From an uncultured virus (IMG/VR IMGVR_UViG_3300027869_000007) (taxonomy: Duplodnaviria; Heunggongvirae; Uroviricota; Caudoviricetes), in the IMG/VR virus record IMGVR_UViG_3300027869_000007: 20,000 bases of DNA; one strand, given 5' to 3'. The translations under genes were made by a program, and so were the position numbers. The notes under the pieces were generated by a model. It was not told where the DNA came from, searched no databases, and saw nothing but the letters and a program-made list of their open reading frames with translations. How positions within the stretch are numbered: position 1 is the stretch's first letter; each line of letters starts with the position of its first letter. This document shows positions 4,182 to 19,008 of the stretch, one piece after another.

Positions 4182-5426
4182 ATGAGTATCGATACGTTAA
4201 GGGGGCAATCAGTCCCCATAAAACTGTGGACTCCTGTCGAGGAAGTCGAATCAAGTGCGCTTGATCAGCTAAAGAACGTCGCATCACTTCCATGGGTTTT
4301 TCATCACGTCGCTGCAATGAGCGATGTCCATTACGGAATAGGCGCAACAGTAGGCTCTGTAATTGCCATGAAAGGAGCGTTAGCTCCGGCAGCCGTTGGA
4401 GTTGATATTGGATGTGGTATGGCAGCTGTTCGTACTAATCTAACTGCCAGCGATCTTCCAGATAACCTAAAACCTATTAGACTCGAACTTGAGCGACGTA
4501 TTCCAGTAGGGCCAAATTCTCATGAAGAGTCTTTAGTCAAGCGTTCAAACCAGCTTTTCAAAGAGTTTGTCACTCTTCATCCTAAGGTCCAAGACCTAGA
4601 AGGGCGTGCGCGAAAGCAATGCGGCACGCTTGGTGGTGGAAACCATTTTATCGAGCTATGTCTAGACGATGGAAAGTGTTATGCGTGTTACGGCAGAGGG
4701 TGGGAACCTGATAATTTTCAATGTTCAGTGTGTCATGGTGAGAAAAAGCTAGAACCTCGGGTCTGGATGATGCTTCACTCAGGTTCTAGGAACATTGGTA
4801 AAGTTCTGGCCGAAATTCATATTGGTGTAGCACGAAAACTTATTCATAATACTATGTTGCCAGATCGTGATCTAGCTGTATTTCTATCTGGTACTCCAGA
4901 AATGGAAGCATATCGACGTGACTTATACTGGGCGCAGCAATATGCGTTTGAAAACAGAAAGATGATGCTTTCTATTTATGAAGACATCATGATCAAGTTC
5001 TTCCCTAAGGCGAAGTTTGACAGAGCCATTTCTTGTCACCACAACTACGTCTCAGAGGAAAATCACTTCGGCGAAGACGTCATTGTGACTCGCAAGGGAG
5101 CAATTAGTGCTAAGACAGGCGAGTTTGGGATAATTCCTGGGTCTATGGGGACAAAGTCTTATATTGTTCAAGGACTGGGGAACGACGAGTCTTTTAGATC
5201 TGCTTCACACGGAGCGGGGAGAAAGATGTCCCGAGGGAAGGCGAAGAATACTTTTTCGCTTGACGATTTTCTTGATCAGACGCAAGGTGTGGAGTGCAGG
5301 AAAAGCCAAGAATTCATAGACGAAATTCCAGGCGCGTACAAAGATATAGACAAGGTTATGGAATATCAAAGTGATTTGGTTAAGGTTAAAGCGGTGCTGA
5401 AGCAAGTTTTGTGTGTGAAGGGATAG
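4182..5426 (+). CDS. rtcB: RtcB family 3'-phosphate/5'-OH RNA ligase
   Basis: Motifs SDVHYGIGATVG, VGVDIGCGM, GTLGGGNHFIE, LHSGSR, CHHNY, RKGA, PGSMG, SASHGAGR and DEIPGAYK; RBS AGGAGG. Confidence 0.97.
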   Translation: MSIDTLRGQSVPIKLWTPVEEVESSALDQLKNVASLPWVFHHVAAMSDVHYGIGATVGSVIAMKGALAPAAVGVDIGCGMAAVRTNLTASDLPDNLKPIRLELERRIPVGPNSHEESLVKRSNQLFKEFVTLHPKVQDLEGRARKQCGTLGGGNHFIELCLDDGKCYACYGRGWEPDNFQCSVCHGEKKLEPRVWMMLHSGSRNIGKVLAEIHIGVARKLIHNTMLPDRDLAVFLSGTPEMEAYRRDLYWAQQYAFENRKMMLSIYEDIMIKFFPKAKFDRAISCHHNYVSEENHFGEDVIVTRKGAISAKTGEFGIIPGSMGTKSYIVQGLGNDESFRSASHGAGRKMSRGKAKNTFSLDDFLDQTQGVECRKSQEFIDEIPGAYKDIDKVMEYQSDLVKVKAVLKQVLCVKG

Positions 5427-5454
5427 AAAGATGCGAAAGCAGTAAGGAGGTTTT

Positions 5455-5934
5455 ATGTTGGAATTAAACGAAAAGGAATCTAAGCTTTTAAGCACGATGA
5501 AGGCTTCGAACGGACCTGTGACTATCGCCGACGCTGCAAACGAATGCTGGGGAGACAAGAGCAAGGAACAGGCACAATCGTGGGTAAGAAACTGTCTTAG
5601 GAAGCTTGTAACGCTAAAACTGGTAAATCAAGTAGGTCGTGGTACTTATGAAGTGTCAAGGCTTGTTAAGGTTCTATCTGAGGATAAGGACGTAGATAAA
5701 AAGGTAGACAAGAAAGCACGAAAAGAGCTGATAGCTAAGCGTGCCGAGGCGGTCAATAAAAGAGAAGAGGAAGTCGTGTATGAAGCGGAGGATACATTAT
5801 CGTTAGCAGATGACGAAGACGAGGATATGGACGAAGACGGGTGTCCTAATGACGATGACGAAGTGTACGATGATGATGATGAAGACGAAAATGAAGATGA
5901 AGACGACGACGAAGACGAACAAGAAGAGGATTGA
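5455..5934 (+). CDS. Winged-helix-like protein with a long Asp/Glu-rich C-terminal tail
   Basis: RBS AAGGAGG. The N-terminus has a wHTH pattern (VTIADAANECW...WVRNCLRKLVTLKLVNQVGRGTYEV) and the last ~45 aa are mostly D/E. Confidence 0.8.
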   Translation: MLELNEKESKLLSTMKASNGPVTIADAANECWGDKSKEQAQSWVRNCLRKLVTLKLVNQVGRGTYEVSRLVKVLSEDKDVDKKVDKKARKELIAKRAEAVNKREEEVVYEAEDTLSLADDEDEDMDEDGCPNDDDEVYDDDDEDENEDEDDDEDEQEED

Positions 5935-6110
5935 AACACAAGTTCACAGGAGCGCGACGCCGAGCGCAGGCGGAAGTAGTACCTTCATCTACAGCTCTTG
6001 ATAATAACAAAAACAGCAGGAGGTTCCTCGGATGTGATATAAACGAAAACGATTGCAACAAACAGGTTAACAAAAACCATGACAAAAGCACAAACTGGCA
6101 TGAAGTCTGA
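5931..6110 (+). pseudogene. Probable decayed N4/N6 DNA methyltransferase fragment
   Basis: PSAGGSSTFI in one frame and KNSRRFLGCDINEN in another resemble the split SAM-binding motif I region (DPFAGSGST...RRFIGCDI). Confidence 0.45.
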
Positions 6111-6139
6111 AAACGCAAACGTAGGAGAAATCTAAGAAA

Positions 6140-6985
6140 ATGGCAAATCTACCCCCTGAGCTAGCACAAGAAGTCGGTCGTTCTCGTTCCGCCGGAGGTG
6201 GGACCAACATCCAGCATGGAGATTACATCTTCATGATCAGGAAGTGTTTCTTCCAGAAGATTCAGCATGCGTGCGTTATCACCGAGCTTATGACTATCGA
6301 GGCTAAGGCTAAGCGAGTTTTCGAAGGCACCAAGGCCGTCGATCATGAGCCCAACCCGGTCGGTCAGGACTGTTCTAGCGTCATCGATTTCGACGGCAAG
6401 GGAGCAGCCTCGGCTAAGAACAATGTTCGTGACCTGGTTGTCGGACTCTTCGGTCTCGATAACAACGTAGCCGACGACATCGTCACTAAGACCTCAGCAG
6501 AGATGGTCTGCGACAACTCCCCGGCGATTGGTATGCTAATCTCCTGCTCCACCCACGCCAAGCCGATTAGGTCTAGGCCCGGCGATTTCATGACCGCCCT
6601 TCATTGGTCGTGCGTCGCTAAGCCTTTCACCGGCCTTAACGACGTAGCGTCGGTAAGGGCCCGCCTTGACGCTTTTGCACGAGGTGGTGCGGAGGCGTGT
6701 GTCAAGGTTGCTCTTGAGCAACTCCAGGCTGCTCGTAAGGCTGGAGCGACGATTGTGCCGCAGCAGGCACCGACTGAGTCTAGTTTCACGGCTCCGTCTT
6801 TGGTTTCTACGCCTGCTGTTCCTTCGGCTCCTTCGTTCCCTCCTGTTCTACAGGCAGATCCGGTAGCTGCAGCTCTTTCAGCAGGATGGCTACCGCATCC
6901 ACAAAACTCGGAATATCTCTATCATCCATCGTTGCCGCAAGGGCAGAATGTAAAGAAGAAGACCGAGTTTAACGGCGTTCAGTAG
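6140..6985 (+). CDS. Hypothetical protein, possibly a single-stranded DNA-binding protein
   Basis: RBS AGGAG, C-ending codon bias suggesting high expression, beta-rich N-terminus, Pro/Ala linker and a small C-terminal GWLPHPQNSEYLY module. Lies in the replication cluster; the function is inferred from context only. Confidence 0.6.
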   Translation: MANLPPELAQEVGRSRSAGGGTNIQHGDYIFMIRKCFFQKIQHACVITELMTIEAKAKRVFEGTKAVDHEPNPVGQDCSSVIDFDGKGAASAKNNVRDLVVGLFGLDNNVADDIVTKTSAEMVCDNSPAIGMLISCSTHAKPIRSRPGDFMTALHWSCVAKPFTGLNDVASVRARLDAFARGGAEACVKVALEQLQAARKAGATIVPQQAPTESSFTAPSLVSTPAVPSAPSFPPVLQADPVAAALSAGWLPHPQNSEYLYHPSLPQGQNVKKKTEFNGVQ

Positions 6986-6992
6986 CAGGTTT

Positions 6993-7055: not shown

Positions 7056-8274
7056 GGAGGGAGCCTTGTTTCACTGGACCGACGAGCAGAACTACGCTCT
7101 AGACGCTATTGACAAGTGGTCATGCAGCGGAGAACCGTTTTTCTCTCTTACAGGTCCAGCAGGAACGGGAAAAAGTACACTACTTCGCGAGGTAGCTGCC
7201 AGGTTTACAGGAGCACATTTAGCAGCTATGACTGGAAAAGCTGCGCTTAGGCTTTCTCAATGTACTGGTCAGACGGCTACAACGCTTCATTCGGTTTTGT
7301 ATTATCCTCCTAAGCCTGGTGAGTCGGTTAAATTTACTCGTACCAGGGAGCCAGAATCGTCGATCTATACGGTAGATGAAAGCTCTATGCTAACACCTGT
7401 TATATTTAACGACATGAAAAAGTGGGCGAGACAGGGTGTTAAGTTTCTTCTTGTAGGTGATTCGTTTCAGCTTCCTCCCGTAATTACAGCCGAAGAAGCA
7501 CGTGAACACGGACAAGACTACAGCGTTTTCTGTTTCGTAAAAGGTGTCGAATTAAAGACTGTGTTGAGAAACGCTGGCGGTGTTCTTCGCGCCGCGACTA
7601 AGGTACGCGAAACAGGTCAAATTTGTCGTGAATCGGACGAAGGGTATGAGTATTTAGAGTGCAACTCGTCGATGGAAAAAGCTGTAGACGACTATTGCAA
7701 TGACATGCATGACCACTTGTTGATTACTTGGAGAAATGCCGTTCGAATGGCTGCTAATCGTATGGTGAGACAGCGACTTGGACATGAAGGAGAACTTCCA
7801 GATGAAGGAGAGCCGGTTCTAATTCGTAGAAACGGCGGTGGGTATCTAAACGGAGAAATTGTAATTTGTGGCGGATTTGAAGTAGGTCCTAAGCTTGGGT
7901 CGATGAACACTCTTTGGATGACGGTTAAAGGAAATTATAACAAGCTATTAGTATCTTATGAAGGCAAGGAAGAGTTTTTCGACGGACAAACGCCATGGAT
8001 TGAGAACTGGAAGAAATATCATATAGATTTGAATAAGGCATGCTTGAATGAGCCGGTACCAATCAGTTGGGGTTATGTTCTTACAGGCCATCAATGCCAG
8101 GGGTCACAAGCTAGAAGAACTACCGTTTTTCTACAAAACGGCGATGAGAGAAGTTCTAACTTTTTAAGGATGACTACACTGCCGTCAGGCGAAAAGGCAA
8201 GTACCATGTCCAGATGGTGCTATACCGCTCAGACGCGCTCAGTTGAGCGAACCACCATGATCGTGGGCAGATGA
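7054..8274 (+). CDS. RecD/Dda-like SF1B helicase (true start may be TTG 7066)
   Basis: Motifs TGPAGTGKST, VDESSM, LLVGDSFQLPPV, GYVLTGHQCQGSQ and YTAQTR. Confidence 0.9.
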   Translation: MEGALFHWTDEQNYALDAIDKWSCSGEPFFSLTGPAGTGKSTLLREVAARFTGAHLAAMTGKAALRLSQCTGQTATTLHSVLYYPPKPGESVKFTRTREPESSIYTVDESSMLTPVIFNDMKKWARQGVKFLLVGDSFQLPPVITAEEAREHGQDYSVFCFVKGVELKTVLRNAGGVLRAATKVRETGQICRESDEGYEYLECNSSMEKAVDDYCNDMHDHLLITWRNAVRMAANRMVRQRLGHEGELPDEGEPVLIRRNGGGYLNGEIVICGGFEVGPKLGSMNTLWMTVKGNYNKLLVSYEGKEEFFDGQTPWIENWKKYHIDLNKACLNEPVPISWGYVLTGHQCQGSQARRTTVFLQNGDERSSNFLRMTTLPSGEKASTMSRWCYTAQTRSVERTTMIVGR

Positions 8275-10748
8275 TCGACAAATCAAAAATTTTCGCCTTC
8301 GACACCGAAACTTATAGGTTTTCGCCAGGAAACCTAGCACCGAAAATCGTATGTGCATCGATATCTGAAATCGTCAATGGAAAACCGAAAGGAAAACTTC
8401 TAGTAGTAACAGACAACATTATTCAACGTTTTGAACAGCTCATAGAAGCTGACAGTCTTATTGCGTTTGCTAACGCTCCTTATGACTTGGCAGTTATAGC
8501 ACAAGCATCCCAAGAGCTGCTACCACTTATATTTCGTGCTATAGAAAAAGGTCAAATTCACGACATACTTACAGCAAGAGCGCTTAACGATATTTACGGA
8601 GGTCATTTATTTCTAAATCCGAATATGACCGAATTGAGAAATCCGTCTACTGGTAAAATCACACACCGATATAGCCTTGCTCTTGTTACTCAACTAGTTC
8701 TAGGTAGGACAGACGCTAAGAAGAACGATGCATGGAGAGAGTCTTATGCGCTTCTAGACAATATACCACCTGAAAGATGGTCTGAAGAAGCGAGAGTCTA
8801 TCCTGTAGACGATACCGACAACACACTTGAAGTCGCAATCGCGCAAATTGAAGGAATAGGAAAGCACGATTGGATAGTAGTTCCCGCCTCATCGACAATT
8901 TGCAGGCATTGCGGAGAGACATATAGCTTTGATATCGACGGTTTAGCATGCCTAAAAGCACCCAAGGAACCGCATAAAAATCTCAACAATTTACCGGCGC
9001 AGGTTGAAGCCGATTTTGCAGCGCATCTTGGAGCTTGTCATGGTCTACGAACCGACCCCAAAAGTGTGGAGAAGCTTTCTGCTCTAGTAGAAGAGAAGCA
9101 TGCAATAGCTGTAAAAAGATTCAAGGCAAAGGGCTGGATAAGAGAAGACGGTACCGAAGACCAGTGCGCCGTAAAGAGAGCTGTAGCTATTGCTTATGGC
9201 GCTACAGGCAATTGCTCAAAGTGCGGCGGCAGCGGTAAGGTACAAAAGTCTAAACTGGAAGATTGTCGAGGCATAAAAGAGAAAAACCGATTTAAGGGAT
9301 GCCTTGGTGTCGATTGTGAAGTGTGTTTTGGAAGTCTAAAAGTCGAAAAAATACAAAAGAAACCAGTTACTTGTAAGAATATTTTTGACAAAAATACCGG
9401 TGACATGATCGAGGGAGGATGTGACGGAACAGGGTTAGATTTATCGACAGCTCCGATGCTACCAAGGACTGAAAAGCAAGGTGTTAAAACCGATAGAGAC
9501 GCTTCTATGGAGAGCGGCGATGAAGACATCTCAGATTACGGTGAAAATGAATTTGAAAAATCATTGTCTACCTACGTACCATACCTTCGTAGTGGTATCG
9601 ACAAACCTTTATCCTATAGCCCAAACGTCCTCGTCGCTACCGGTCGCTATTCGTATGAAGGTTCTCCAATGCACCAAATGCCTCGCGACGGTCTTGAGCG
9701 AGAGTGTATAAGAGCACGAGGAGCGTGGTGCGGCTATCCTGAGGAGATGATTTTAGGAGCAACTGATTATCAAGCCGGAGAACTTTGTACGTTAGCACAA
9801 TATTGCTACTGGGTGTTCGGTTACTCGCAGATGAGAGAGATTATCAATCATACCGGGGAACCAGGAATACTACACTCAGATCTAGCAGCTGAGGTTCTCG
9901 GACTATCTCTTCCTGAATTTCTCTCAAGACTTAAAGCTAAAGATAAACAGGCAAAGGATTTTCGATACGCTTCAAAGTCTATCAATTTCGGTCGACCAGG
10001 AGGCATGGGAACTCCTAAGCTTATAATTACAAATAGAAAGAAGAACGCAGGATTTACTTTATGTGAAAACGGTCCTGCAACTAATAAAAAGGGTGAGACG
10101 GGCTATTGGGGAATTCGTTACTGCATTCTAGTAGGAGGAGCTAAGCAGTGTGGGACGGAGAAGATTTTGACATGGAAAGACAGAGCCTGCGCCCCGGTTT
10201 GTGCTACTTGTGCCGAAGTAGTTGAGAATATCCTTACCCCTGCCTATTTTCGCCGCTACCCGGAAGTGAAAGACCTTCACAGGTGGGTTGCCGACAAGAT
10301 AGATCGGGGAGAGCCTTCACCTTGTGCTGTTTGGGACCCAGAAGTCGGTGCGCCGAAGATTGTTCGCCTGAGAGGAGGGTGTGACTTCCCCTCGTTTGCA
10401 AACAACGTCTTTCAGTCCATGCTGTCAGATGTTATCAAGCATGCATACGTAGCGATGACCAAAGAGTGCTATCTTGGCGTAAAGTCTGACGGTTCGCCGT
10501 CGCCGTTGGCAGGATGTAGAATACCTATTGTTATGCATGATGAGCCTTTGTCGGAGCTGATCTTGAGGACAGCACACTTGTCGGCTCCTAGAATTGCAGA
10601 AATCATGATGACTTCTGGACAAACACTAGCTCCTCATGTTAAATGGAAGGCTGAAAGTGCGATAGCTTTTAGGTGGTCAAAAAACATGGAACCCGTTTAC
10701 AATGACGGAATGCTTGTGCCGTGGGAGTCGGAGAAGGTGGCAGCATGA
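8271..10748 (+). CDS. polA: Family A DNA polymerase with a 3'-5' exonuclease domain and Cys-rich insertions
   Basis: ExoI FDTET, ExoII NAPYD, ExoIII YPVDD, TGRYS, motif A DYQAGEL, motif B RYASKSINFG, NNVFQS and motif C MHDE. Confidence 0.92.
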   Translation: MIDKSKIFAFDTETYRFSPGNLAPKIVCASISEIVNGKPKGKLLVVTDNIIQRFEQLIEADSLIAFANAPYDLAVIAQASQELLPLIFRAIEKGQIHDILTARALNDIYGGHLFLNPNMTELRNPSTGKITHRYSLALVTQLVLGRTDAKKNDAWRESYALLDNIPPERWSEEARVYPVDDTDNTLEVAIAQIEGIGKHDWIVVPASSTICRHCGETYSFDIDGLACLKAPKEPHKNLNNLPAQVEADFAAHLGACHGLRTDPKSVEKLSALVEEKHAIAVKRFKAKGWIREDGTEDQCAVKRAVAIAYGATGNCSKCGGSGKVQKSKLEDCRGIKEKNRFKGCLGVDCEVCFGSLKVEKIQKKPVTCKNIFDKNTGDMIEGGCDGTGLDLSTAPMLPRTEKQGVKTDRDASMESGDEDISDYGENEFEKSLSTYVPYLRSGIDKPLSYSPNVLVATGRYSYEGSPMHQMPRDGLERECIRARGAWCGYPEEMILGATDYQAGELCTLAQYCYWVFGYSQMREIINHTGEPGILHSDLAAEVLGLSLPEFLSRLKAKDKQAKDFRYASKSINFGRPGGMGTPKLIITNRKKNAGFTLCENGPATNKKGETGYWGIRYCILVGGAKQCGTEKILTWKDRACAPVCATCAEVVENILTPAYFRRYPEVKDLHRWVADKIDRGEPSPCAVWDPEVGAPKIVRLRGGCDFPSFANNVFQSMLSDVIKHAYVAMTKECYLGVKSDGSPSPLAGCRIPIVMHDEPLSELILRTAHLSAPRIAEIMMTSGQTLAPHVKWKAESAIAFRWSKNMEPVYNDGMLVPWESEKVAA

Positions 10749-11151: not shown

Positions 11152-11362
11152 GGCAGCCAAGCCAGCATGGTACGAACTCTCTCCTAGTTGTAGAGGAGGT
11201 CTTTATAGATTTATGAGGCAGGAGAAAGACAGGCTTTTTTATTTTGATTCAGATGTGGAAGACACCTATCGTGCAGCTTTGGAGGTGTTGAGGTTGGCAG
11301 TGAGCGATGAAAACGTTAAGAACGCTATTGCTAGAGCTGTATTTAACAGGCGTTGGGGTTAA
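11093..11362 (+). CDS. Hypothetical basic protein
   Basis: AGGAG RBS before TTG 11093, in frame with the listed ORF 11057-11362. Confidence 0.55.
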   Translation: MKKVSKITARKTATKTGKNKAAKPAWYELSPSCRGGLYRFMRQEKDRLFYFDSDVEDTYRAALEVLRLAVSDENVKNAIARAVFNRRWG

Positions 11363-11367
11363 AGATA

Positions 11368-11685
11368 ATGTATTGCAACTACTGTGCAAAGCAGACTAAT
11401 AAAACTTGCCGATGCGACAGGTTAATTCGTGGCGAAGATAAAAGTAATCTTGTAACTGAGCAGACTAAGCCTATGGAAGAAAGATCTTTTTTGCCAGTAG
11501 TATGGAACCTAGTACTTGAAGATATGAAACTACGCGATCAAATAGGCAGGCAACGCTACGGTACGCCGTTGCAACCTTTCAACGGACGTGACGCTCTTGT
11601 AGACGCCTATCAGGAAGCACTCGATTTAGTTGTCTATCTGAGACAGGCCATCTGGGAGCGTGATAACAAAAAGGAAACACCGTGA
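11368..11685 (+). CDS. Small all-alpha NTP-pyrophosphatase-like phage protein with an N-terminal Cys motif
   Basis: RDQIGRQRYGTPL...DAYQEALDLVVYL pattern and N-terminal CNYC...CRC. Confidence 0.55.
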   Translation: MYCNYCAKQTNKTCRCDRLIRGEDKSNLVTEQTKPMEERSFLPVVWNLVLEDMKLRDQIGRQRYGTPLQPFNGRDALVDAYQEALDLVVYLRQAIWERDNKKETP

Positions 11686-12194
11686 CAAAAGCACAACTTC
11701 AGGTTCAAGAGTTTCACAGAGAAGTCGTAGGCAGTCCTACTTCGCCAGCAACTCCACAACTACGCGACTCGGAGTTGAGAGCAAGGCTCATTCTTGAAGA
11801 ATCTTTTGAGACAGTCGTAGCCCTGGTAGGAGCCAAAAAAGCGATTTCGCTTATTAAACACGAACTAGATTCGTTACCTAGAACGAGCAGCAAACCGAGT
11901 TTGATTGAGACGATAGACGGTCTGTGTGATTTGTGGTATGTGTTACTTGGAACCGCAGAGACTATAGGAATCGATCTTGAGCCGTTCATGGACGAGGTTC
12001 ACCGATCGAACATGCTAAAGAAAGGTGCCGGTGTAGACAAGTACGGAAAGCAGTTGAAACCAAAGGGATGGAAGCCGCCTGATATTGCCGGGGTGCTTTG
12101 TGCTTATCTTGCAGGTATCGGACCTCTGATGGGCCAATGGCCAGGAGAGGAGAGCGACGACGAAGTTTTCGACGCTCTTGAGAATGATGACTGA
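11682..12194 (+). CDS. MazG-like / PRA-PH (DR2231-like) nucleoside triphosphate pyrophosphohydrolase
   Basis: Motifs VQEFH, LRARLILEESFE, ETIDGLCDLWYVLLG, EVHRSNMLK and GKQLKPKGWKPPDI. Confidence 0.85.
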   Translation: MTKAQLQVQEFHREVVGSPTSPATPQLRDSELRARLILEESFETVVALVGAKKAISLIKHELDSLPRTSSKPSLIETIDGLCDLWYVLLGTAETIGIDLEPFMDEVHRSNMLKKGAGVDKYGKQLKPKGWKPPDIAGVLCAYLAGIGPLMGQWPGEESDDEVFDALENDD

Positions 12195-12897: not shown

Positions 12898-12926
12898 TTG
12901 ACATTAAAATGCTTGTTAGGCATACT
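12898..12926 (+). promoter_or_regulatory. Sigma70-type promoter of the tRNA array
   Basis: TTGACA (12898-12903), a 17-bp spacer and CATACT (12921-12926); expected start site near G12933. Confidence 0.8.
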
Positions 12927-12929: not shown

Positions 12930-13046
12930 ATGGTGACGATCAGAACGAAAAAGGCACAGCCGAGACACTTGGACGCGTCGCGCGTCATATGGGGATATAG
13001 CGGCCACCCCTTGATCAAGTTTAATTGGGAGGCTGCCAGACCCTAG
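12930..13046 (+). CDS. Putative attenuator leader peptide (38 aa from ATG 12930, or 37 aa leaderless from GTG 12933)
   Basis: MVTIRTKKAQPRHLDASRVIWGYSGHPLIKFNWEAARP followed by tandem TAG TAG. The ORF starts at the predicted transcription start and ends inside the antiterminator arm. Confidence 0.6.
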   Translation: MVTIRTKKAQPRHLDASRVIWGYSGHPLIKFNWEAARP

Positions 13047-13106
13047 TAGAACCTAAATAGGGAAAACTAGAGGTCGGGCGAGACGAAAGTTCTCCCGGCC
13101 TTTTTT
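13000..13106 (+). terminator. Attenuator: alternative hairpins ending in an intrinsic terminator
   Basis: Terminator AGGTCGGG...GAAA...CCCGGCCT plus a T run (13071-13106). A competing helix pairs 13035-13047 with 13066-13079, and an upstream hairpin spans 13000-13036. Confidence 0.7.
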
Positions 13107-13112
13107 GTTTTC

Positions 13113-13182
13113 GGGTCGTCCTCTGGGAGGACGTTGGTTTCCAAAACCGACTAGCAGGGTTCGATTCCTTGACGACCCGCCA
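13113..13182 (+). tRNA. tRNA-Trp(CCA), short atypical D arm
   Basis: Acceptor GGGTCGT/ACGACCC, G73, encoded CCA, loop TT-CCA-AA, T loop TTCGATT. Confidence 0.8.
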
Positions 13183-13234
13183 TAACAGTGTGAAAAAATA
13201 GGTGTTTTACGAATTTTGTTGACTGATAAGTGAC

Positions 13235-13319
13235 GGGGTGATAGACCACTAGAGAGGTGGGGCTAGCTGTAAACTAGTCGTTCTTTTGAGCCAACCGAGT
13301 GCGACTCTCGGGCACCCCA
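13235..13319 (+). tRNA. tRNA-Tyr(GTA)
   Basis: GGGGTG/CACCCC acceptor, GCTAG-CT-GTA-AA-CTAGT, long variable arm, T loop TGCGACT. Confidence 0.8.
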
Positions 13320-13375
13320 CCTAGCTTGGCGAGTCTTAGTAGCGAAACGCGAACGGCCGTGTAGCCAAGAAGTAG

Positions 13376-13396
13376 TTGATTTTGAAAACAAAATAG
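13376..13396 (+). promoter_or_regulatory. boxA-like antitermination element
   Basis: TTGATTTTGAAAACAAAATAG resembles the rrn leader/spacer boxA (TCTTTGAAAAC). Confidence 0.5.
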
Positions 13397-13437
13397 TCGA
13401 CGACGAAAACAGACCTTGGTCTATATCAAGGTCTTAT

Positions 13438-13510
13438 GCGTGTGTGATGTTTAACGGTAGCATGACGGTCTTCCAAGCCGCCTGTAGGAGTTCGAATCTC
13501 CTCACACGCT
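13438..13510 (+). tRNA. tRNA-Gly(TCC)
   Basis: GCGTGTG/CACACGC acceptor, U73, loop CT-TCC-AA. Confidence 0.88.
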
Positions 13511-13514
13511 CTAT

Positions 13515-13585
13515 TCCGGTGTCGTCTAATGGTAAGGCGCAGGTCTTTGAATCCTGCTATAGTGGTTCGATCCCACTCGCCGGAA
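13515..13585 (+). tRNA. tRNA-Gln(TTG)
   Basis: TCCGGTG/CGCCGGA acceptor, loop CT-TTG-AA. Confidence 0.88.
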
Positions 13586-13594
13586 CTTTGTTTC

Positions 13595-13668
13595 TCGGGG
13601 ATCGTCTAACGGTAGGACGATAGATTCTGAATCTATCTATCAAGGTTCGAATCCTTGTCCCCGAACCA
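13595..13668 (+). tRNA. tRNA-Gln(CTG)
   Basis: TCGGGGA/TCCCCGA acceptor, ATAGA-TT-CTG-AA-TCTAT, encoded CCA. Confidence 0.92.
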
Positions 13669-13669
13669 C

Positions 13670-13744
13670 GCCTGTGTAGCACAATGGTAGTGCAGCGGTT
13701 TTGTAAACCGAAGGTTGGAGGTTCAAATCCTCTCGCAGGCTCCA
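13670..13744 (+). tRNA. tRNA-Thr(TGT)
   Basis: GCCTGTG/CGCAGGC acceptor, loop TT-TGT-AA, encoded CCA. Confidence 0.92.
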
Positions 13745-13755
13745 ACTCGCTTTAT

Positions 13756-13830
13756 TCCAGCGTATCATAATGGAAATGAACCCGACTGTTAATCGGGGAT
13801 ATGTACGTTCGAGTCGTGCCGCTGGAGCCA
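13756..13830 (+). tRNA. tRNA-Asn(GTT)
   Basis: TCCAGCG/CGCTGGA acceptor, G73, CCCGA-CT-GTT-AA-TCGGG, encoded CCA. Confidence 0.92.
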
Positions 13831-13831
13831 T

Positions 13832-13905
13832 GGCGCCATCGTACAATGGCAGTACCACGGTTTTTCACACCGTTTACGAGAGTTCGATTCTCTCTGGCGT
13901 CACCA
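13832..13905 (+). tRNA. tRNA-Glu(TTC)
   Basis: GGCGCCA/TGGCGTC acceptor, ACGGT-TT-TTC-AC-ACCGT, encoded CCA. Confidence 0.9.
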
Positions 13906-13908
13906 TTT

Positions 13909-13983
13909 CCGAGTGTAAGTCAGCAGCAGACGGCATGCTTTGGGAGCATGCAGCCGGGGGTGCAAGTCCCTCCACTCGGACCA
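13909..13983 (+). tRNA. tRNA-Pro(TGG)
   Basis: CCGAGTG/CACTCGG acceptor, CATGC-TT-TGG-GA-GCATG, A73, encoded CCA. Confidence 0.88.
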
Positions 13984-13992
13984 ATTTAAAAT

Positions 13993-14067
13993 CCGCCGTT
14001 AGTTCAATGGGAGAACGCTTTCCTGATTAGAGAGAGGTTGAAAGTTCGACTCTTTCACGGCGGACCA
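13993..14067 (+). tRNA. tRNA-Ile(GAT), unusual U37
   Basis: CCGCCGT/ACGGCGG acceptor, loop CT-GAT-TA, encoded CCA. Confidence 0.85.
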
Positions 14068-14082
14068 AGATAGGAGAACGTC

Positions 14083-14559
14083 ATGGCTAGGAGAAGCATC
14101 GCAAAGACCGCGATTGAGGGCGGTCGTCACGGTACCTGTCGTTCTGCAGAAGATGAAGCAGACCGTCGCGAGCGACGTGCCTGGAGGGACTACTGCCGCC
14201 GCGCCTCCTATGATTTTGATGTCGAGGACCCTGCCGGAGTGTCTTTTGCTGCACCGTACGAGACTGGTCGGCAATACCGCGAGTTTGATGACAAACTGAA
14301 GCCTGTCAAACGCTGGCTCGAATCTCAGGTAGGGAGACCTTGGGACCACATTAAAAGTGATGTGGTAGCGCTATTCGATAATCGTACTACGGCCGGGCGA
14401 CACATTATTGAACACGTGAAGTGTTTTGTGTCGCTTCCTACAGATCAGCATAGATACAACCCATATCCACCCTACCCAGGTAAGTTGTATGTTGATGAGC
14501 ACGGCGTGTTGCGACAGGCACCTTGGATGTCACGTAAGAAATGGTATGCATCTAGGTGA
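14083..14559 (+). CDS. Basic hypothetical protein embedded in the tRNA array
   Basis: AGGAG RBS; 158 aa with AIEGGR, DKLKPVKRWLESQVGRPW, RTTAGRHI and LYVDEHGVLR motifs. Confidence 0.8.
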   Translation: MARRSIAKTAIEGGRHGTCRSAEDEADRRERRAWRDYCRRASYDFDVEDPAGVSFAAPYETGRQYREFDDKLKPVKRWLESQVGRPWDHIKSDVVALFDNRTTAGRHIIEHVKCFVSLPTDQHRYNPYPPYPGKLYVDEHGVLRQAPWMSRKKWYASR

Positions 14560-14562
14560 TAT

Positions 14563-14639
14563 GGTGACGTTGGTGTAGCGGCACTGCACGTTTGCCTGTG
14601 GAGCAAAAGGTATGGGATCGACACCCATACGTCACCCCA
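14563..14639 (+). tRNA. tRNA-His(GTG)
   Basis: G-1:C73 pair, GTGACGT/ACGTCAC acceptor, TTTGC-CT-GTG-GA-GCAAA, encoded CCA. Confidence 0.9.
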
Positions 14640-14641
14640 AC

Positions 14642-14717
14642 GCACGCGAGGTTCCCTGGAGGGAACGCCGTCCTGTCACGACGGAGTGGACGGGTTCGAT
14701 TCCCGTCGCGTGCGCCA
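14642..14717 (+). tRNA. tRNA-Asp(GTC)
   Basis: GCACGCG/CGCGTGC acceptor, G73, CCGTC-CT-GTC-AC-GACGG, encoded CCA. Confidence 0.9.
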
Positions 14718-14718
14718 C

Positions 14719-14789
14719 GCCCCGGCAGCTCGAAGGTCGAGCGTCCCGCTGAAAATGGGAAGGTGAAGGTCCAATTCCTTCCTGGGGCA
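14719..14789 (+). tRNA. tRNA-Phe(GAA)
   Basis: GCCCCGG/CTGGGGC acceptor, loop CT-GAA-AA, T loop TCCAATT. Confidence 0.85.
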
Positions 14790-14794
14790 CAAAC

Positions 14795-14866
14795 GGGAAG
14801 CCCGCTGAAGCGGAAGACTGGTTTGCAACCAGACTGTGAAGGGTTTGATTCCCTTGCTTTCCACCA
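14795..14866 (+). tRNA. tRNA-Ala(TGC), atypical D arm
   Basis: GGGAAGC/GCTTTCC acceptor gives the G3:U70 Ala determinant; A73, loop TT-TGC-AA, encoded CCA. Confidence 0.8.
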
Positions 14867-14869
14867 TAT

Positions 14870-14942
14870 ACGCGTATAGCTCAATTGGAAGAGCACTCGG
14901 CTACGAACCGAGAGGCTGTGGGTCCGAGTCCCTCTACGCGTA
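14870..14942 (+). tRNA. tRNA-Arg(ACG)
   Basis: ACGCGTA/TACGCGT acceptor, CTCGG-CT-ACG-AA-CCGAG. Confidence 0.88.
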
Positions 14943-14947
14943 CTATT

Positions 14948-15023
14948 GTCCTCGTAGCTCAACTGGAAGAGCAAGCGCGTCCTAAGCGCGAGGTTGCGGG
15001 TTCAAATCCCGCCGAGGATACCA
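14948..15023 (+). tRNA. tRNA-Arg(CCT)
   Basis: GTCCTCG/CGAGGAT acceptor, loop GT-CCT-AA, encoded CCA. Confidence 0.88.
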
Positions 15024-15048
15024 TGCGACAGGCACTTGAGCCGAGTCC

Positions 15049-15122
15049 GGCGCCATAGTACAATGGTAGTACCACGGTTTTACACACCGTTTACGCGAGT
15101 TCGATTCTCGCTGGCGTCACCA
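15049..15122 (+). tRNA. tRNA-Val(TAC), near-identical paralogue of tRNA-Glu(TTC)
   Basis: ACGGT-TT-TAC-AC-ACCGT, A73, encoded CCA; differs from 13832-13905 at five positions. Confidence 0.85.
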
Positions 15123-15125
15123 TTT

Positions 15126-15147
15126 CCGAGTGTAAGCCATCGGACCA
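15126..15147 (+). pseudogene. Internally deleted copy of tRNA-Pro
   Basis: CCGAGTGTAAG (5' end of tRNA-Pro) is joined to TCGGACCA (its 3' end), with the same TTT spacer after the upstream tRNA. Confidence 0.75.
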
Positions 15148-15152
15148 ATCGG

Positions 15153-15212
15153 CATTGACAAACGACTTTGACAAACAACATTGACAAACAACAACGATAA
15201 ACAACAATGATA
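15153..15212. repeat. 13-bp degenerate tandem repeat (about 4.5 copies)
   Basis: CATTGACAAACGA / CTTTGACAAACAA / CATTGACAAACAA / CAACGATAAACAA / CAATGATA. Confidence 0.85.
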
Positions 15213-15373
15213 CTGACCTATAAATATCGTCTAAAAGGTAAGCGTACTATTAGGCAGCTAAAGCAATTTGCTTTCGCGTTGAGGACAAGCTACTAGCTCC
15301 TGACGTAGCCGTAGGCATAGACTTAGGTCTAAAGAGCCTTGCAACTCTCAGCAACGGCGAAAAAATCGACAAT
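15207..15373 (+). pseudogene. tnpB: IS200/IS605 TnpB relic with a large internal deletion
   Basis: N-terminus MILTYKYRLKGKRTIRQL, then in another frame the RuvC-I motif AVGIDLGLKSLATLSNGEKIDN. Confidence 0.8.
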
Positions 15374-15430
15374 ATAACAGCCTATAGACTGGCACTATAT
15401 TTGGTGTGATAGAATAGAAGGGAGGTTAAA

Positions 15431-15973
15431 GTGCAAACGCTAGTCTTAGACGTAGGATACCAACCACTTAGTCGAGTTCCTTGGGAAACTGCAATTGTAT
15501 GGGTTTTGGAACGCGTTGTAGAGGTTGTCGAATCTTATCCAGACAGATATATCAATACTGTCAGTTGGCGTGTAAATATGCCTTCTATAGTTCGATTTGT
15601 AAAGCCTATTGTAAAGAAGCGAGCAATCAAGTTTAGTCGACACAGCGTCTACGCACGTGATAAAGGACGATGTCAGTATTGCTCTAAGTTTGTTTCTCGT
15701 AATGAGTTTACATATGATCACGTAATCCCTAGATCACAAGGCGGCATTACATGTTTTGAAAACGTAGTTGTAGCTTGCGTTCCTTGTAATCAAAGAAAAG
15801 CCGGTAGGACACCTGGTCAAGCCGGAATGCGTCTTTTATCTATTCCTGTTAGACCTAAGAAACTTCCAGACGTGCCTTATAGAATTCGTTTTACAAATGA
15901 CATGCCTTCTTCGTGGAAAGAGTGGATCAGATCGGCAGTTTATTGGGATTCTGAATTGGACGACGGAGGGTGA
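15431..15973 (+). CDS. HNH endonuclease (McrA-like HNH family)
   Basis: Motifs LVLDVGYQPL, PSIVRF, FSRHSVYARDKGRCQYC, TYDHVIPRSQGG and NVVVACVPCNQRK; RBS GGAGG. Confidence 0.93.
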   Translation: MQTLVLDVGYQPLSRVPWETAIVWVLERVVEVVESYPDRYINTVSWRVNMPSIVRFVKPIVKKRAIKFSRHSVYARDKGRCQYCSKFVSRNEFTYDHVIPRSQGGITCFENVVVACVPCNQRKAGRTPGQAGMRLLSIPVRPKKLPDVPYRIRFTNDMPSSWKEWIRSAVYWDSELDDGG

Positions 15974-16050
15974 ACCGGGATGGTCTCGGCACTGTCTTGA
16001 AAACAGAGGGTGCTTAACGGCATGGCGTTCGATTCGTCCGCCCTCCTCCA
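15965..16050 (+). tRNA. tRNA-Ser(TGA), overlapping the HNH stop codon
   Basis: GGAGGGT/GCCCTCC acceptor, loop CT-TGA-AA, long variable arm, U73, encoded CCA. Confidence 0.88.
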
Positions 16051-16086
16051 CCTCCCCCGAGCCGCAGCGGTCTCTGCGGCGCTCCT

Positions 16087-16170
16087 GGAAGGTAAACCAC
16101 ACCGGGTGTGGGCTTGTTTCGAAAACAATGCGAGCTAAAGCTTGGAGTTCGACTCTTCTGCCTTCCTCCA
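16087..16170 (+). tRNA. tRNA-Ser(CGA)
   Basis: GGAAGGT/GCCTTCC acceptor, loop TT-CGA-AA, long variable arm, encoded CCA. Confidence 0.88.
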
Positions 16171-16172
16171 AT

Positions 16173-16259
16173 GGAAGATTAACCGGCAAGGTAGCCGGCG
16201 CCGATTGCTAATCGGTAGGAGCCAAAAGGCTTGGGGATCGTGCCCTCAGTCTTCCGCCA
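16173..16259 (+). tRNA. tRNA-Ser(GCT)
   Basis: GGAAGAT/GTCTTCC acceptor, GCCGA-TT-GCT-AA-TCGGT, long variable arm, G73, encoded CCA. Confidence 0.9.
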
Positions 16260-16278
16260 AATTTCGTCGTCGACTAAC

Positions 16279-16352
16279 GCTCTGCGGGCTGGACGCCCAG
16301 CGAAGCCTTCTAAGCTTTGCGTCGATAGGTTCGATTCCTATGCAGAGCACCA
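16279..16352 (+). tRNA. tRNA-Arg(TCT), atypical D arm
   Basis: GCTCTGC/GCAGAGC acceptor, GAAGC-CT-TCT-AA-GCTTT, encoded CCA. Confidence 0.85.
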
Positions 16353-16353
16353 T

Positions 16354-16426
16354 CGACCAATAGCTTAATGGTTTAAAGCACTTGCCTTATAAGCGAGAGA
16401 TGATGGTTCGATCCCATCTTGGTCGA
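16354..16426 (+). tRNA. tRNA-Ile(TAT)
   Basis: CGACCAA/TTGGTCG acceptor, A73, CTTGC-CT-TAT-AA-GCGAG. Confidence 0.87.
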
Positions 16427-16452
16427 CTACTTGATAGGGTAGAGGCACTATA

Positions 16453-16569
16453 ATGTTACTGACCTATAAATATCGTCTTAAAGGTAAGCGTACCATTAGG
16501 CAGCTAAACACACAAAAGCATCTAGATACTGATTTAGACTGGTTTGCAGAAATAGTGTTAGACACTTGA
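16453..16569 (+). pseudogene. tnpB: Second TnpB 5' relic
   Basis: MLLTYKYRLKGKRTIRQL; about 55 nt are nearly identical to 15207-15262. Confidence 0.7.
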
Positions 16570-16594
16570 CCTCTCCCTAAAGCTATGCTATCTT
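16566..16594 (+). promoter_or_regulatory. Sigma70-type promoter with an extended -10
   Basis: TTGACC, a 17-bp spacer, then TGc-TATCTT. Confidence 0.6.
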
Positions 16595-16600
16595 TAGTAT

Positions 16601-16698
16601 CAGGTGACTGACGTCCCTCGTCGGACCTCGACGAAAAATCAAGCCGGTATATCCGGTCTAGCCCCAGGTAGTTAAACTCCCTGGGGTTTTTCTTTTTT
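16601..16698 (+). ncRNA. Candidate small RNA (or 23-codon mini-ORF) between a promoter and a terminator
   Basis: Hairpins TCGTCG/CGACGA and CCGG/CCGG followed by the terminator; GTG 16604 opens a 23-aa ORF. Confidence 0.45.
16660..16698 (+). terminator. Intrinsic terminator
   Basis: GCCCCAGG...CCTGGGGT stem followed by TTTTCTTTTTT. Confidence 0.85.
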
Positions 16699-16708
16699 AC
16701 CTTTTTGG

Positions 16709-16737
16709 TTGACGATAACTAAGTATTTCGCTAGGCT
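16709..16737 (+). promoter_or_regulatory. Sigma70-type promoter for the downstream accessory genes
   Basis: TTGACG, a 17-bp spacer and TAGGCT, followed by a GGAGG RBS. Confidence 0.6.
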
Positions 16738-16760
16738 TGTTGACGTAGGGGGAGGACGTC

Positions 16761-17219: not shown

Positions 17220-17232
17220 GGGAGAGACATAA

Positions 17233-17433
17233 GTGCTTCACTTATTGATAATTGGTATCTTTTTGTCTCAGGCGCCAAAATCGTCTCAGGAACCAAAGAT
17301 AGTCTTCTATCACTGCGTCAGCGAAGACGACGAATGCCTTATCGAAGAAGAGCTTGACGAGTACAAGGGATTGGATTGCTATATCGATAACACGATTCCG
17401 GTGCAGGCGTGTTTCGAGAAGAAATCGAAGTAA
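17233..17433 (+). CDS. Small protein with a signal-peptide-like N-terminus and four Cys
   Basis: RBS GGAG; begins MLHLLIIGIFLSQA. Confidence 0.6.
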   Translation: MLHLLIIGIFLSQAPKSSQEPKIVFYHCVSEDDECLIEEELDEYKGLDCYIDNTIPVQACFEKKSK

Positions 17434-17928
17434 ATGCGCGTTTTGTTTCTAGATATGGACGGTGTCGTAAACTCTTCAGACTTTTTTGAAGTGTTTAGCA
17501 AGACGCAGTATCGTAAAGCAAGAGGTATAGCTAAAGCCAAGGGAAGATTAAATAACACGTTTGTCGATATGATAGATCCGAAAGTCGTAACTCTTCTAAA
17601 TCAGATAATCGAAAGTTGCAATTGTAGCGTCGTTAGTAGCTCTTCGTGGAGAACTATTTTTACGCCTAAAGAGATAACTTTGATGCTGAAGGAAAAAGGC
17701 TTTAAAGGAGAGATAATAGACAGGACTCCTGATCTAATGTGTGAACGTGGAGACGAGATTCTAGAGTGGTTGAACAAGCATCCTGAAGTAAAGTCTTTTG
17801 TAATTCTAGATGATGGTGATGACATGGGAAAGCTACTACCTAGGCTAGTCCAGACTACCTTTCAAAAAGGGCTTCAACTTGAGCACGTTAGAAAGGTGTT
17901 TGATCTTTTTGATGGAGATGTTAAGTGA
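17434..17928 (+). CDS. HAD phosphatase, Swiss Army Knife RNA-repair type (HAD_SAK_2-like)
   Basis: Motifs VLFLDMDGVVNS, VVSSSSWR, TPD, RGDEILEWL, FVILDD and VQT...GL. Confidence 0.88.
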   Translation: MRVLFLDMDGVVNSSDFFEVFSKTQYRKARGIAKAKGRLNNTFVDMIDPKVVTLLNQIIESCNCSVVSSSSWRTIFTPKEITLMLKEKGFKGEIIDRTPDLMCERGDEILEWLNKHPEVKSFVILDDGDDMGKLLPRLVQTTFQKGLQLEHVRKVFDLFDGDVK

Positions 17929-18119
17929 AGTGGGAGGATTCCGCCGTCAACTTTGGTTTCGTCTTCAAGAAAGAAGTAGACGTTCTAACGCTAGAGTATC
18001 TAGCGCTTGGATGCGATTTAATGAGAGCGTCTCATATGGCTTGTATGGAAGTTTTAAGTAGCTACGAGGAGCACGACAAGAAGGAAGACGAAAAGAGGAA
18101 GAATAAGGAGAGGAGATAG
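17925..18119 (+). CDS. Hypothetical protein
   Basis: The GTG start overlaps the upstream stop; GGAG lies upstream. Confidence 0.55.
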   Translation: MKWEDSAVNFGFVFKKEVDVLTLEYLALGCDLMRASHMACMEVLSSYEEHDKKEDEKRKNKERR

Positions 18120-18194
18120 CAATGGGCCATGCTTATCGGAATTGTTGAAGGTAAGCGTACCATTAGGCAATCAGGTCATTAGGGGAGAAGCAAA

Positions 18195-18446
18195 GTGAAA
18201 CTTATCACAAGTAACCTCAAAGTCGGCGGCTGGCGTGGCGTCTTTGGCTGGCTGTTATGGCTATTTCTAGGATACGAAAGAAAGCCAAGATGCGCAGCTT
18301 TTTATAGCCACGCTTGGGACAGCAGGTGTGTAGGTCTTGCAGACCCTAGATGTCTGGGTGGAAATTGTACCAAGTGCTGTAACGAACTTTGCAAGGACAG
18401 GTGTAGGCACAGAGGCTGGACGGTTATGAAGGGAGGTGTGTCGTGA
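18195..18446 (+). CDS. Small Cys-rich protein with a hydrophobic segment
   Basis: RBS GGGGAG; eight Cys in the C-terminal half. Confidence 0.6.
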   Translation: MKLITSNLKVGGWRGVFGWLLWLFLGYERKPRCAAFYSHAWDSRCVGLADPRCLGGNCTKCCNELCKDRCRHRGWTVMKGGVS

Positions 18447-18955
18447 CGGACGACGGCAATGAAGATGATCCTATTATCTTACGTTTTGCTATATTTTTTG
18501 CTAAAACGAAGCACGAAGGACAATATTACAGGTACGGTGATCACAACACACCTTATACATTTCATCTAAACGCTGTTGAAAAGGTTCTTAGACGGTTTAA
18601 TGTTATTGATAAACACTTACTAGCAGCCGCTTGGCTTCATGACGTCTTAGAGGATACAGACACCACACGCGACGAATTGGAGTCGTCTTTTGGTTCTATA
18701 GTTTCTTCTCTTGTACGGGCTGTAACAACCGAACCGGGACCTAGTCGTAAGAGTCGTGTAAAAGCGACTTATCCTAAGATTGTATCGTGCCCTTCCGCTA
18801 TTGTTTTGAAGTTAGCTGATAGAATTGCTAACGTAGAGGCTAGTTTAGAAACAAAAAGCAAGAAGTTCTTTGATATGTATAAGAACGAATACGACGAGTT
18901 TAAGAGGGCTCTTTACAGCAAAAACTGTTGCTGTAGAAATGTGGGCACATCTTGA
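18443..18955 (+). CDS. HD-domain small alarmone hydrolase-like protein (RelA/SpoT hydrolase, Mesh1-like)
   Basis: Motifs AKTKHEGQ, PYTFHL, AAWLHDVLEDT, VRAVT and LKLADRIAN; RBS GGAGG. Confidence 0.87.
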   Translation: MTDDGNEDDPIILRFAIFFAKTKHEGQYYRYGDHNTPYTFHLNAVEKVLRRFNVIDKHLLAAAWLHDVLEDTDTTRDELESSFGSIVSSLVRAVTTEPGPSRKSRVKATYPKIVSCPSAIVLKLADRIANVEASLETKSKKFFDMYKNEYDEFKRALYSKNCCCRNVGTS

Positions 18956-19008
18956 TCGCTTATTTGAGACAAAGTCATGATCGAATGGGTTAGCTTTAGG
19001 AGAAAATC

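Follow-up and report, generated by a model that had tools for sequence, protein, structure and literature searches.

A tRNA operon behind a candidate leader-peptide attenuator in an uncultured tailed-phage-like genome, and the translation-related genes around it

The DNA analyzed here (the window) is a stretch of 20,000 nucleotides from an uncultured virus of the Caudoviricetes, IMG/VR record IMGVR_UViG_3300027869_000007. It presents one strand of a tailed-phage-like genome with an SF2 helicase, a Dda-like helicase, a family A polymerase (PolA) and small accessory genes. Within 15 kb, and all on the + strand, it carries genes for the RNA ligase RtcB, a MazG-like enzyme, 22 tRNAs, an HNH endonuclease, a HAD_SAK_2 phosphatase and an HD_4 protein resembling small alarmone hydrolases. 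An earlier note, made from the sequence alone, had listed these parts and proposed that they form one coordinated module against tRNA-targeting defenses, with an attenuator as its sensor. The parts list was borne out: every gene lies where it had been placed, on the + strand, and the gene identities and the layout are directly supported by Pfam, ARAGORN and Rfam. We argue below that the real unit is probably the tRNA operon at positions 12930-16698, under the control of a leader-peptide switch, and that the helper genes around it were probably acquired separately. The features of this operon are the following.

12898..12926, + strand: candidate sigma70-type promoter, TTGACA-17-CATACT, with 10/12 consensus matches
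12930..13046, + strand: leader open reading frame (ORF) of 38 codons from ATG 12930 (37 from GTG 12933, probably leaderless), using 19/20 amino acids
13035..13079, + strand: antiterminator hairpin, 13035-13047 paired with 13066-13079 and overlapping the 5' arm of the terminator (fold of 13025-13108, ribosome-walk simulation)
13070..13111, + strand: intrinsic terminator with its stem extending to 13100 and a U tract at 13101-13111 (-18.7 kcal/mol)
13113..16427, + strand: array of 22 tRNA genes (19 by ARAGORN, one by Rfam, two by eye and folding)
14083..14559, + strand: ORF of 158 aa within the array, with homologues but without a family
15431..15973, + strand: HNH endonuclease, all8564-like, by homology to the family of long tRNA arrays
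16660..16698, + strand: strong intrinsic terminator between the tRNA operon, which it closes, and the HAD and HD genes (z -3.4, -17.9 kcal/mol, with a run of U behind it)

The tRNA operon and its candidate attenuator

The 5' strand of the antiterminator is formed by the final codons of the leader together with its stop codon, and the terminator ends directly 5' of the first tRNA gene, that of tRNA-Trp. The folding switch was obtained directly in silico: when a ribosome was walked along the leader, the terminator had a probability of no more than 0.05 while the ribosome occupied codons 20-29, and of 1.0 for codons 33-39; its probability was high also at codons 6-19, and reached 0.69 without a ribosome. 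The low terminator probability was attained by 2 of 300 shuffled sequences, meaning that the switch outperforms 298/300. A promoter, which was called by consensus only in a window holding 31 such sites versus 22.9 expected, a short ORF, a mutually exclusive antiterminator and terminator and a switch governed by ribosome position are all present in silico, and the leader-peptide attenuator is credible and looks real.

The attenuator probably works as follows. The promoter would drive a short leader that is rich in different codons. A ribosome at the leader's stop codon would cover the antiterminator strand, the terminator would form, and the operon would be switched off. A ribosome that stalls at approximately codons 20-29, when charged, intact tRNA is short, would leave the antiterminator to form, and the 22 tRNA genes, the ORF at 14083 and the HNH gene would be transcribed. 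We infer that the attenuator controls read-through in this manner in cells. The stretch of the leader that would do the sensing opens with an ATA codon (Ile); codons 20-29 further call for Trp, Gly, Tyr, Ser and His. A leader tuned to the anticodons of the array was considered and rejected, as codons read by the array account for 24/37 of its codons versus 59% in the phage genes.

A similar arrangement precedes other tRNA arrays. At the array starts in the collected loci, a terminator-like site lies within 250 nt in 8/32 cases, and a strong one within 100 nt in 6/32. These six other arrays (L047 at 17145, L291 at 7523, L292 at 1914, L321 at 4507, L342 at 6641 and L349 at 5316) are each preceded by a leader that starts at ATG, runs for 33-50 codons and uses 17-20 amino-acid types; its stop codon lies 46-64 nt before the U tract. 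Such a leader accompanies 22 of 304 background terminators, in no case with 19 amino-acid types, and the combined p for the six is ~1e-4. Four or five of the six other leaders start with Met-Thr, as does the leader in the window when read from GTG 12933. In L321 the ATG follows closely behind the -10 box, like that of the leader studied here, which is the arrangement of a leaderless mRNA. A blastn search with the leader against all collected loci gave no match.

Several points weigh against this interpretation. The folding switch was computed at equilibrium. A leader with 19 amino-acid types is by itself a weak signal, being found in 4.7% of gene windows. With regard to the six-array comparison, its thresholds were chosen after a first look at the arrays, the strict closed-frame rule that was used for the background retains 3/6 of the leaders (p 0.008), and simulated switching is absent in 2/6 of them.

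Even if the attenuator operates as proposed, it can govern only the tRNA genes, the ORF at 14083 and the HNH gene. Judging by gene order and by the predicted promoter and terminator signals, the genes named do not form one transcription unit under the attenuator: those for RtcB and the MazG-like enzyme lie upstream of the leader promoter, and those for the HAD and HD proteins lie past the terminator at 16660-16698. Its transcription unit includes just one of the five enzyme genes, and this excludes a role as sensor of the whole set. Of the idea that an attenuator serves as the sensor of the module, the attenuator itself is credible; its command over the entire set is not supported.

The array contains genes for tRNA-Trp, Tyr, Gly, Gln (two), Thr, Asn, Glu, Pro, Ile (two), His, Asp, Phe, Cys, Arg (three), Val and Ser (three). 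The tRNA-Ser(TGA) gene near 15964-16050 was recognized through a match to the Rfam tRNA-Sec model (E 3.6e-7), and tRNA-Cys(GCA) near 14795-14866 and tRNA-Ser(CGA) near 16086-16170 were read by eye and then folded. Neither ARAGORN and Rfam nor reading by eye revealed a tRNA-Lys, -Leu, -Ala or -Met within the window, and tRNA was the sole known RNA family matched in the Rfam scan of the window. The genes for tRNA-Glu(TTC) at 13832-13905 and tRNA-Val(TAC) at 15049-15122 are copies of each other that differ at five positions, including the middle base of the anticodon and a compensatory pair in the T stem, which points to a duplication followed by a shift of the anticodon; the beginning of the tRNA-Pro gene was duplicated together with the Glu/Val copy. 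That tRNA-Val(TAC) is a mis-assembled copy of the tRNA-Glu gene was rejected by the agreement of contigs from multiple runs and by the comparison of the copies. The gene at 16354-16427 encodes a tRNA-Ile with a TAT anticodon, which is rare in bacteria.

For the ORF at 14083, no family was assigned in Pfam, PHROG and Atlas look-ups. Its homologues come from four viral loci, in two of which they lie amid tRNA genes, and its only match in a cultured phage, Myxococcus phage Mx1, gives a weak hint that the host may be a myxobacterium. The region 16566-16700, at the end of the operon, packs a promoter candidate, three hairpins and the terminator into 130 nt (z -3.6) and might encode a small RNA.

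The window HNH protein is 34.6% identical to the HNH protein of the Nostoc PCC 7120 delta plasmid, whose gene lies upstream of a 24-tRNA array, and residues C81, C84, D96, H97, N111, C116, C119 and N120 are invariant in 6/6 sequences. With many co-oriented tRNA genes and an all8564-like HNH gene, the locus has the makeup of a long tRNA array with HNH (L-array), and the HNH enzyme would most likely serve to spread or amplify the array. Ahead of the HNH gene, at 15146-15208, are three TTGACAAAC repeats spaced by 13 nt and a promoter candidate, perhaps a promoter or operator of its own.

Enzyme genes outside the operon

Besides the HNH gene, the earlier note had assigned four enzyme genes to the module.

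4182..5426, + strand: RNA ligase RtcB of 414 aa, carrying a CxxC..CxxC insertion (Pfam E 4.6e-120, 402 bits)
11682..12194, + strand: PRA-PH/MazG-like all-alpha NTP pyrophosphohydrolase of the DR2231 type (Pfam E 1.5e-11)
17434..17928, + strand: stand-alone HAD_SAK_2 phosphatase (Pfam E 3.1e-29)
18443..18955, + strand (main frame, with a +1-frame tail to 18980): HD protein like Mesh1 and small alarmone hydrolases (Pfam HD_4, E 3.8e-10)

The activities given for these enzymes, like any role against host defenses, are predicted. RtcB has the domain, the metal-binding D/C/H residues and the guanylylated histidine of an RtcB ligase: D75, C78, H155, H199, H287 and H343 are invariant in 22/22 aligned sequences, and the protein aligns to solved RtcB. 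Its gene lies inside the replication block, with the SF2 helicase on one side and the Dda-like helicase and PolA on the other, and the protein matches 682 cultured-phage records, chief among them those of Mycobacterium, Bacillus and Listeria phages. The CxxC..CxxC insertion (4670-4750, residues ~165-190) is variable, occurs in about half of the 22 homologues and is likely a zinc finger. A gap of 236 nt 5' of the gene (3945-4181) contains two short ORFs and hairpins; its folding is not above that of shuffles (z -0.7), and, compared by eye, the gap is not common to the closest RtcB loci.

Anticodon breaks are repaired by the T4 Pnk/Rnl1 pathway. That pathway of healing and sealing combines a 3'-phosphatase, a 5'-kinase and an ATP-grasp ligase, and no 5'-kinase or Rnl ligase was detected by family profiles among the 27 window ORFs scanned. 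According to Iyer et al. 2021 (PMC7824862), 3'-phosphate and cyclic-phosphate ends are ligated by RtcB as they are, without prior healing, and phosphatases, including those of the Swiss-army-knife HAD type, prepare ends for ATP-grasp ligases. Since RtcB needs a 3'-phosphate or cyclic-phosphate end, a 3'-phosphatase would be expected to compete with it. The description of the RtcB and HAD pair as a healing-and-sealing system therefore does not fit the chemistry. The analogy to phage T5 and PARIS, which depends on tRNA-Lys, absent from the window, is not supported either; the cut made by the PARIS nuclease AriB leaves a 3'-OH end, which RtcB does not use, so that PARIS ends are not RtcB substrates. 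RtcB would ligate breaks with cyclic-phosphate and 5'-OH ends directly, from a transcription unit other than the tRNA operon.

In the HAD protein, D7, D9, S69, D126 and D127 are conserved in at least 90% of 54 sequences. Its structural model (pLDDT 92.8) has a small HAD fold, with MDP-1 as the best match (TM 0.56) and the T4 Pnkp phosphatase at rank 19. The designation "RNA-repair" is the name of a family, not a demonstrated activity. The protein matches 64 cultured-phage records, mostly of Vibrio and Aeromonas phages. A function as companion of Rnl1 found little support, with Rnl1 in 3/49 HAD records (Rnl2 was not searched). The HAD phosphatase, likewise outside the transcription unit of the tRNAs, probably helps to counter one type of translation stress or attack.

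The closest match of the HD protein is MESH1 (E 5.6e-14), and it has the motifs of stand-alone RSH hydrolases (PY..H, HD..ED and KLADR..N). At the position of the HD1 arginine (H-x-x-Q-x-R), it has a tyrosine by comparison with Rel, and an arginine one residue further on that aligns to that of MESH1 only with a gap. The main frame stops at 18955, and a tail resembling a C-terminus continues in the +1 frame to 18980, as read in three frames against a Nodularia phage homologue; an intact C-terminal helix was not found, the sequence for the final helix apparently being in the +1 frame. The frame change occurs near a run of five A (18920-18980) and is present in all four matching metagenome runs, none of which shows an indel, and an assembly error was rejected on this basis. 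It may reflect truncation or recoding. MESH1 and ATfaRel reverse tRNA pyrophosphorylation; going by its predicted activity, the HD protein would remove 3'-pyrophosphate from alarmones or tRNA, from a separate unit.

The best Protein Data Bank matches of the MazG-like protein are DR2231 (E 2e-14 over residues 7-139). It resembles DR2231 also in being a single all-alpha domain with an EExxE..D metal site, of which E40, E43 and D83 are invariant in 26/26, with Gly in place of the third Glu of DR2231. Neither an array nor RtcB is near any of the 80 MazG-anchored loci (the best 80 of several hundred matches). As a crude proxy of linkage, four contigs with MazG-like homologues equal PolA-homologue contigs in length, and none equals an RtcB-homologue contig. 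The phage MazG protein Atd1 depletes ppGpp, and dNTPs, but not ppGpp, are the substrates of a cyanophage MazG. An alarmone-degrading MazG of the Atd1 type might be expected among anti-defense genes; the context of the gene in the window points to replication. The enzyme probably is a DR2231-type member of the dUTPase family that travels with replication genes and would do dUTP/dNTP house-cleaning, and it would fall outside a translation kit, contrary to the membership assigned to it in the earlier note. A small ORF next to it (11353-11685) matches the C-terminal part of several PHROGs, one of which is labelled deoxynucleoside monophosphate kinase; going by its motif, we presume that it resembles a second all-alpha nucleotide enzyme.

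Contigs from four runs (three studies) agree with the window sequence, with no indel listed; one of these runs, X2, may be that from which the window itself came. The matching runs derive from soil and mine samples; the longest record bearing the window's RtcB measures 85,788 bp. PolA (8271-10748), whose clade numbers about 100 homologues, has many conserved cysteines, likely belonging to zinc fingers added to the core enzyme, and a pentapeptide-repeat protein with a conserved C-terminal part is encoded at 19296-20000. Three remnants of a gene start (repeats D5 and D9), at 15201-15390, 16447-16508 and 18145-18169, share a GIDLG motif that we take to be TnpB-like; run X2 yielded a 64.8-kb contig that includes the window, and on it a further copy continues into different sequence.

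Co-occurrence of the genes in other phages

Scans of viral contigs anchored on RtcB, HAD, MazG-like and HNH proteins gave 80 loci each, the best 80 of several hundred matches. Whole-record searches on longer contigs covered 50/80 RtcB, 50/80 HAD and 36/80 MazG loci, of which 49, 49 and 36 were analyzed; record G005 is counted in both the RtcB and HAD sets. Relatives of the polymerase consisted of 45 metagenome loci with 10-kb flanks, most of them short, as PolA scans of viral and genome contigs yielded no usable relatives.

The counts, which are direct observations, largely contradict the expectation that the parts co-occur across phages. The 49 RtcB records include HAD in one, HD_4 in 11, PRA-PH in six and at least 10 tRNA genes in 16, and all four in none. 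RtcB is present in seven of the 49 HAD records, HD_4 in five (all at least 300 kb), Rnl1 in three and arrays in 21. The 36 MazG records contain RtcB in no case, HD_4 in one and arrays in eight. HAD is near RtcB in 0/80 RtcB loci, and RtcB is near HAD in 2/80 HAD loci. None of the 45 PolA loci has RtcB, HAD, HD, a MazG-like gene or an array within its flanks, and all nine related loci that span the region from the SF2 helicase to PolA are without RtcB there. Hence, co-inheritance of all parts was not observed (0/49, 0/36 and 0/9).

The tRNA array itself has a clearer pattern of neighbors. At least five tRNA genes are found within 10 kb of HNH in 25/80 loci, including 14 of the 20 closest, and in 14/80 RtcB, 11/80 HAD, 0/80 MazG and 0/45 PolA loci. 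It should be noted that array frequency tracks record size, and that the RtcB and MazG sets do not differ clearly in it (16/49 versus 8/36, p 0.34). After correction for length, RtcB is near the array in 8/16 and HAD in 7/21 array-bearing records, versus ~3.6-4.8 expected (p 0.01-0.06 for RtcB and 0.05-0.17 for HAD), and MazG avoids arrays (0/8). Other arrays have different partners: L292 and L321, for example, have TROVE/Ro. The array is a hub with variable cargo, to which HNH is strongly linked and RtcB and HAD are weakly linked.

Some counts run counter to a separate acquisition of the helper genes. In records below 200 kb, HD_4 accompanies RtcB in 7/42 versus 1/74 of the others (p 0.003), and in 5/11 cases it lies within 7 kb of RtcB. 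Three of these five close pairs belong to one RtcB clade and therefore about three lineages remain. The array, RtcB, HD and HAD occur together in three records, all of at least 446 kb; their presence in a much smaller phage is therefore unusual and suggests shared selection. Finally, fragments are common among the records, and the relatives could be viewed no further than 10 kb from PolA. One RtcB clade (L055, L057, L058, L061, L063, L065 and L076), whose RtcB proteins are 65-92% identical, has HD at a distance of ~5 kb and in many cases a tRNA array as well, and it is a better case of a conserved block of RtcB, HD and tRNAs than the window.

Alternative explanations and biological meaning

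According to the proposal of the earlier note, replacement of tRNA, healing and sealing of ends and removal of alarmones would form one anti-defense module under a single sensor. The clustering of all parts in 15 kb on one strand speaks for it, as do the linkage of RtcB with HD and the excess of RtcB and HAD near arrays; published work adds the reversal of tRNA pyrophosphorylation by MESH1 and ATfaRel, the depletion of ppGpp by Atd1 and the co-induction of the tRNA operon, HNH gene and rtcB in Anabaena. On the other hand, not one of the 49 RtcB records holds the full set, RtcB and HAD are hardly ever neighbors, and the parts are spread over separate transcription units, two enzyme genes lying upstream of the leader promoter and two past the terminator. 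Moreover, a 3'-phosphatase would strip the very end that RtcB requires, AriB leaves 3'-OH ends and no tRNA-Lys is at hand. We find such a module very doubtful. The phage would rather have gathered, separately, several common translation-acting accessory genes, of which RtcB, HD and HAD probably each counter a distinct type of translation stress or attack.

It is also conceivable that the locus has no specific role in defense, with the tRNAs topping up translation during takeover or starvation, a selfish HNH gene, and enzymes carried as cargo for stress in general or for house-keeping. Array-read codons are not over-represented in the leader, so it would read general ribosome speed, and the literature describes an Anabaena operon that answers general translation stress, an HNH protein proposed to be a homing endonuclease and a cyanophage MazG that acts on dNTPs. 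Against this explanation, phage tRNAs have been shown to defeat retron-Eco7, PrrC and PARIS, and SegB amplifies tRNA genes and so defeats Septu; we judge the explanation unlikely. A further objection concerns the leader: the terminator could be real, with a phage or host antitermination factor or partial read-through as the cause of switching, and the leader ORF could be incidental. A Shine-Dalgarno sequence is absent before the leader, the terminator is only 0.69 probable without a ribosome, and two of the six other leaders do not switch in the simulation. The stop codon of the leader nevertheless lies inside the antiterminator strand, leaders alike in length, diversity and stop-to-U distance precede six arrays that have no blastn similarity to the leader in the window, and the ATG closely behind the -10 box, here and in L321, is that of a leaderless mRNA. 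A cause other than the ribosome is, in our view, rather improbable.

Leader-peptide attenuators are familiar from the trp, his, thr and ilv operons, where translation of a short ORF selects the antiterminator or the terminator. Those attenuators gate biosynthetic operons, whereas the one in the window would gate phage tRNAs; unlike their leaders, the leader in the window contains nearly all amino acids and no single-codon run. A leader-peptide attenuator ahead of phage tRNA genes was not found in the literature searched, which covered few subscription journals. Another comparison concerns the nuclease, which is an HNH enzyme here, while SegB is said to be a GIY-YIG enzyme. The T-even SegB-tRNA region (PMC13096335) likewise ties a nuclease gene to a block of tRNA genes. 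In the tRNA-rich region of T5 (PMC11555353, PMC11464382), phage tRNAs defeat tRNA-cleaving defenses, and T5 relies either on a promoter of great strength or on a tRNA-Lys that is resistant; the window has no tRNA-Lys. By the precedent of T5, the replacement of damaged host tRNA by the array, as had been suggested, is plausible.

The trn L-operon of Anabaena PCC 7120 (PMC8421152; for TrcR see PMC10272220) resembles the window in its long tRNA operon and homologous HNH gene. It is induced by translation stress together with the HNH gene and rtcB, and HNH is proposed to spread the array. The operon differs in that it lies on a plasmid, has its HNH gene upstream under a promoter of its own and no rtcB nearby, and is controlled by promoter repeats and a repressor, as opposed to a leader peptide. 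The parallel drawn before is thus correct in the co-induction and the homologous family, but not in placing HNH inside the Anabaena operon. The gene repertoire as such is already described for large phages: the survey by Iyer et al. 2021 (PMC7824862) lists tRNA arrays, RtcB, stand-alone Swiss-army-knife HAD phosphatases, HD alarmone phosphoesterases and MazG-like enzymes for jumbo phages, and that on the 92-kb Pseudomonas phage Adele (PMC12846349) reports 17 tRNAs, a small alarmone hydrolase, MazG, a kinase and two ligases. In that repertoire, phosphatases accompany ATP-grasp ligases, whereas the window has RtcB and neither a kinase nor Rnl; no attenuator appears in the passages covered, and the window has a candidate for one.

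We therefore return to the tRNA operon under its leader switch. As a tentative extension, which may well prove wrong, the operon would constitute a closed loop: a leader containing nearly all amino acids would sense the loss of tRNA by cleavage, 3'-pyrophosphorylation or starvation as stalling, and would induce 22 tRNAs and an HNH enzyme that possibly amplifies the array, in a design that recurs in unrelated phages, with RtcB and HD as independent back-ups. These results bear on the open question of what makes phages carry tRNA arrays and how the timing of their expression is set. The gene list adds little to it, and the counts speak against a modular reading of repair genes that lie close to one another. 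The attenuator, if it is real, would mean that a phage senses the shut-off of host translation and answers it with tRNA.

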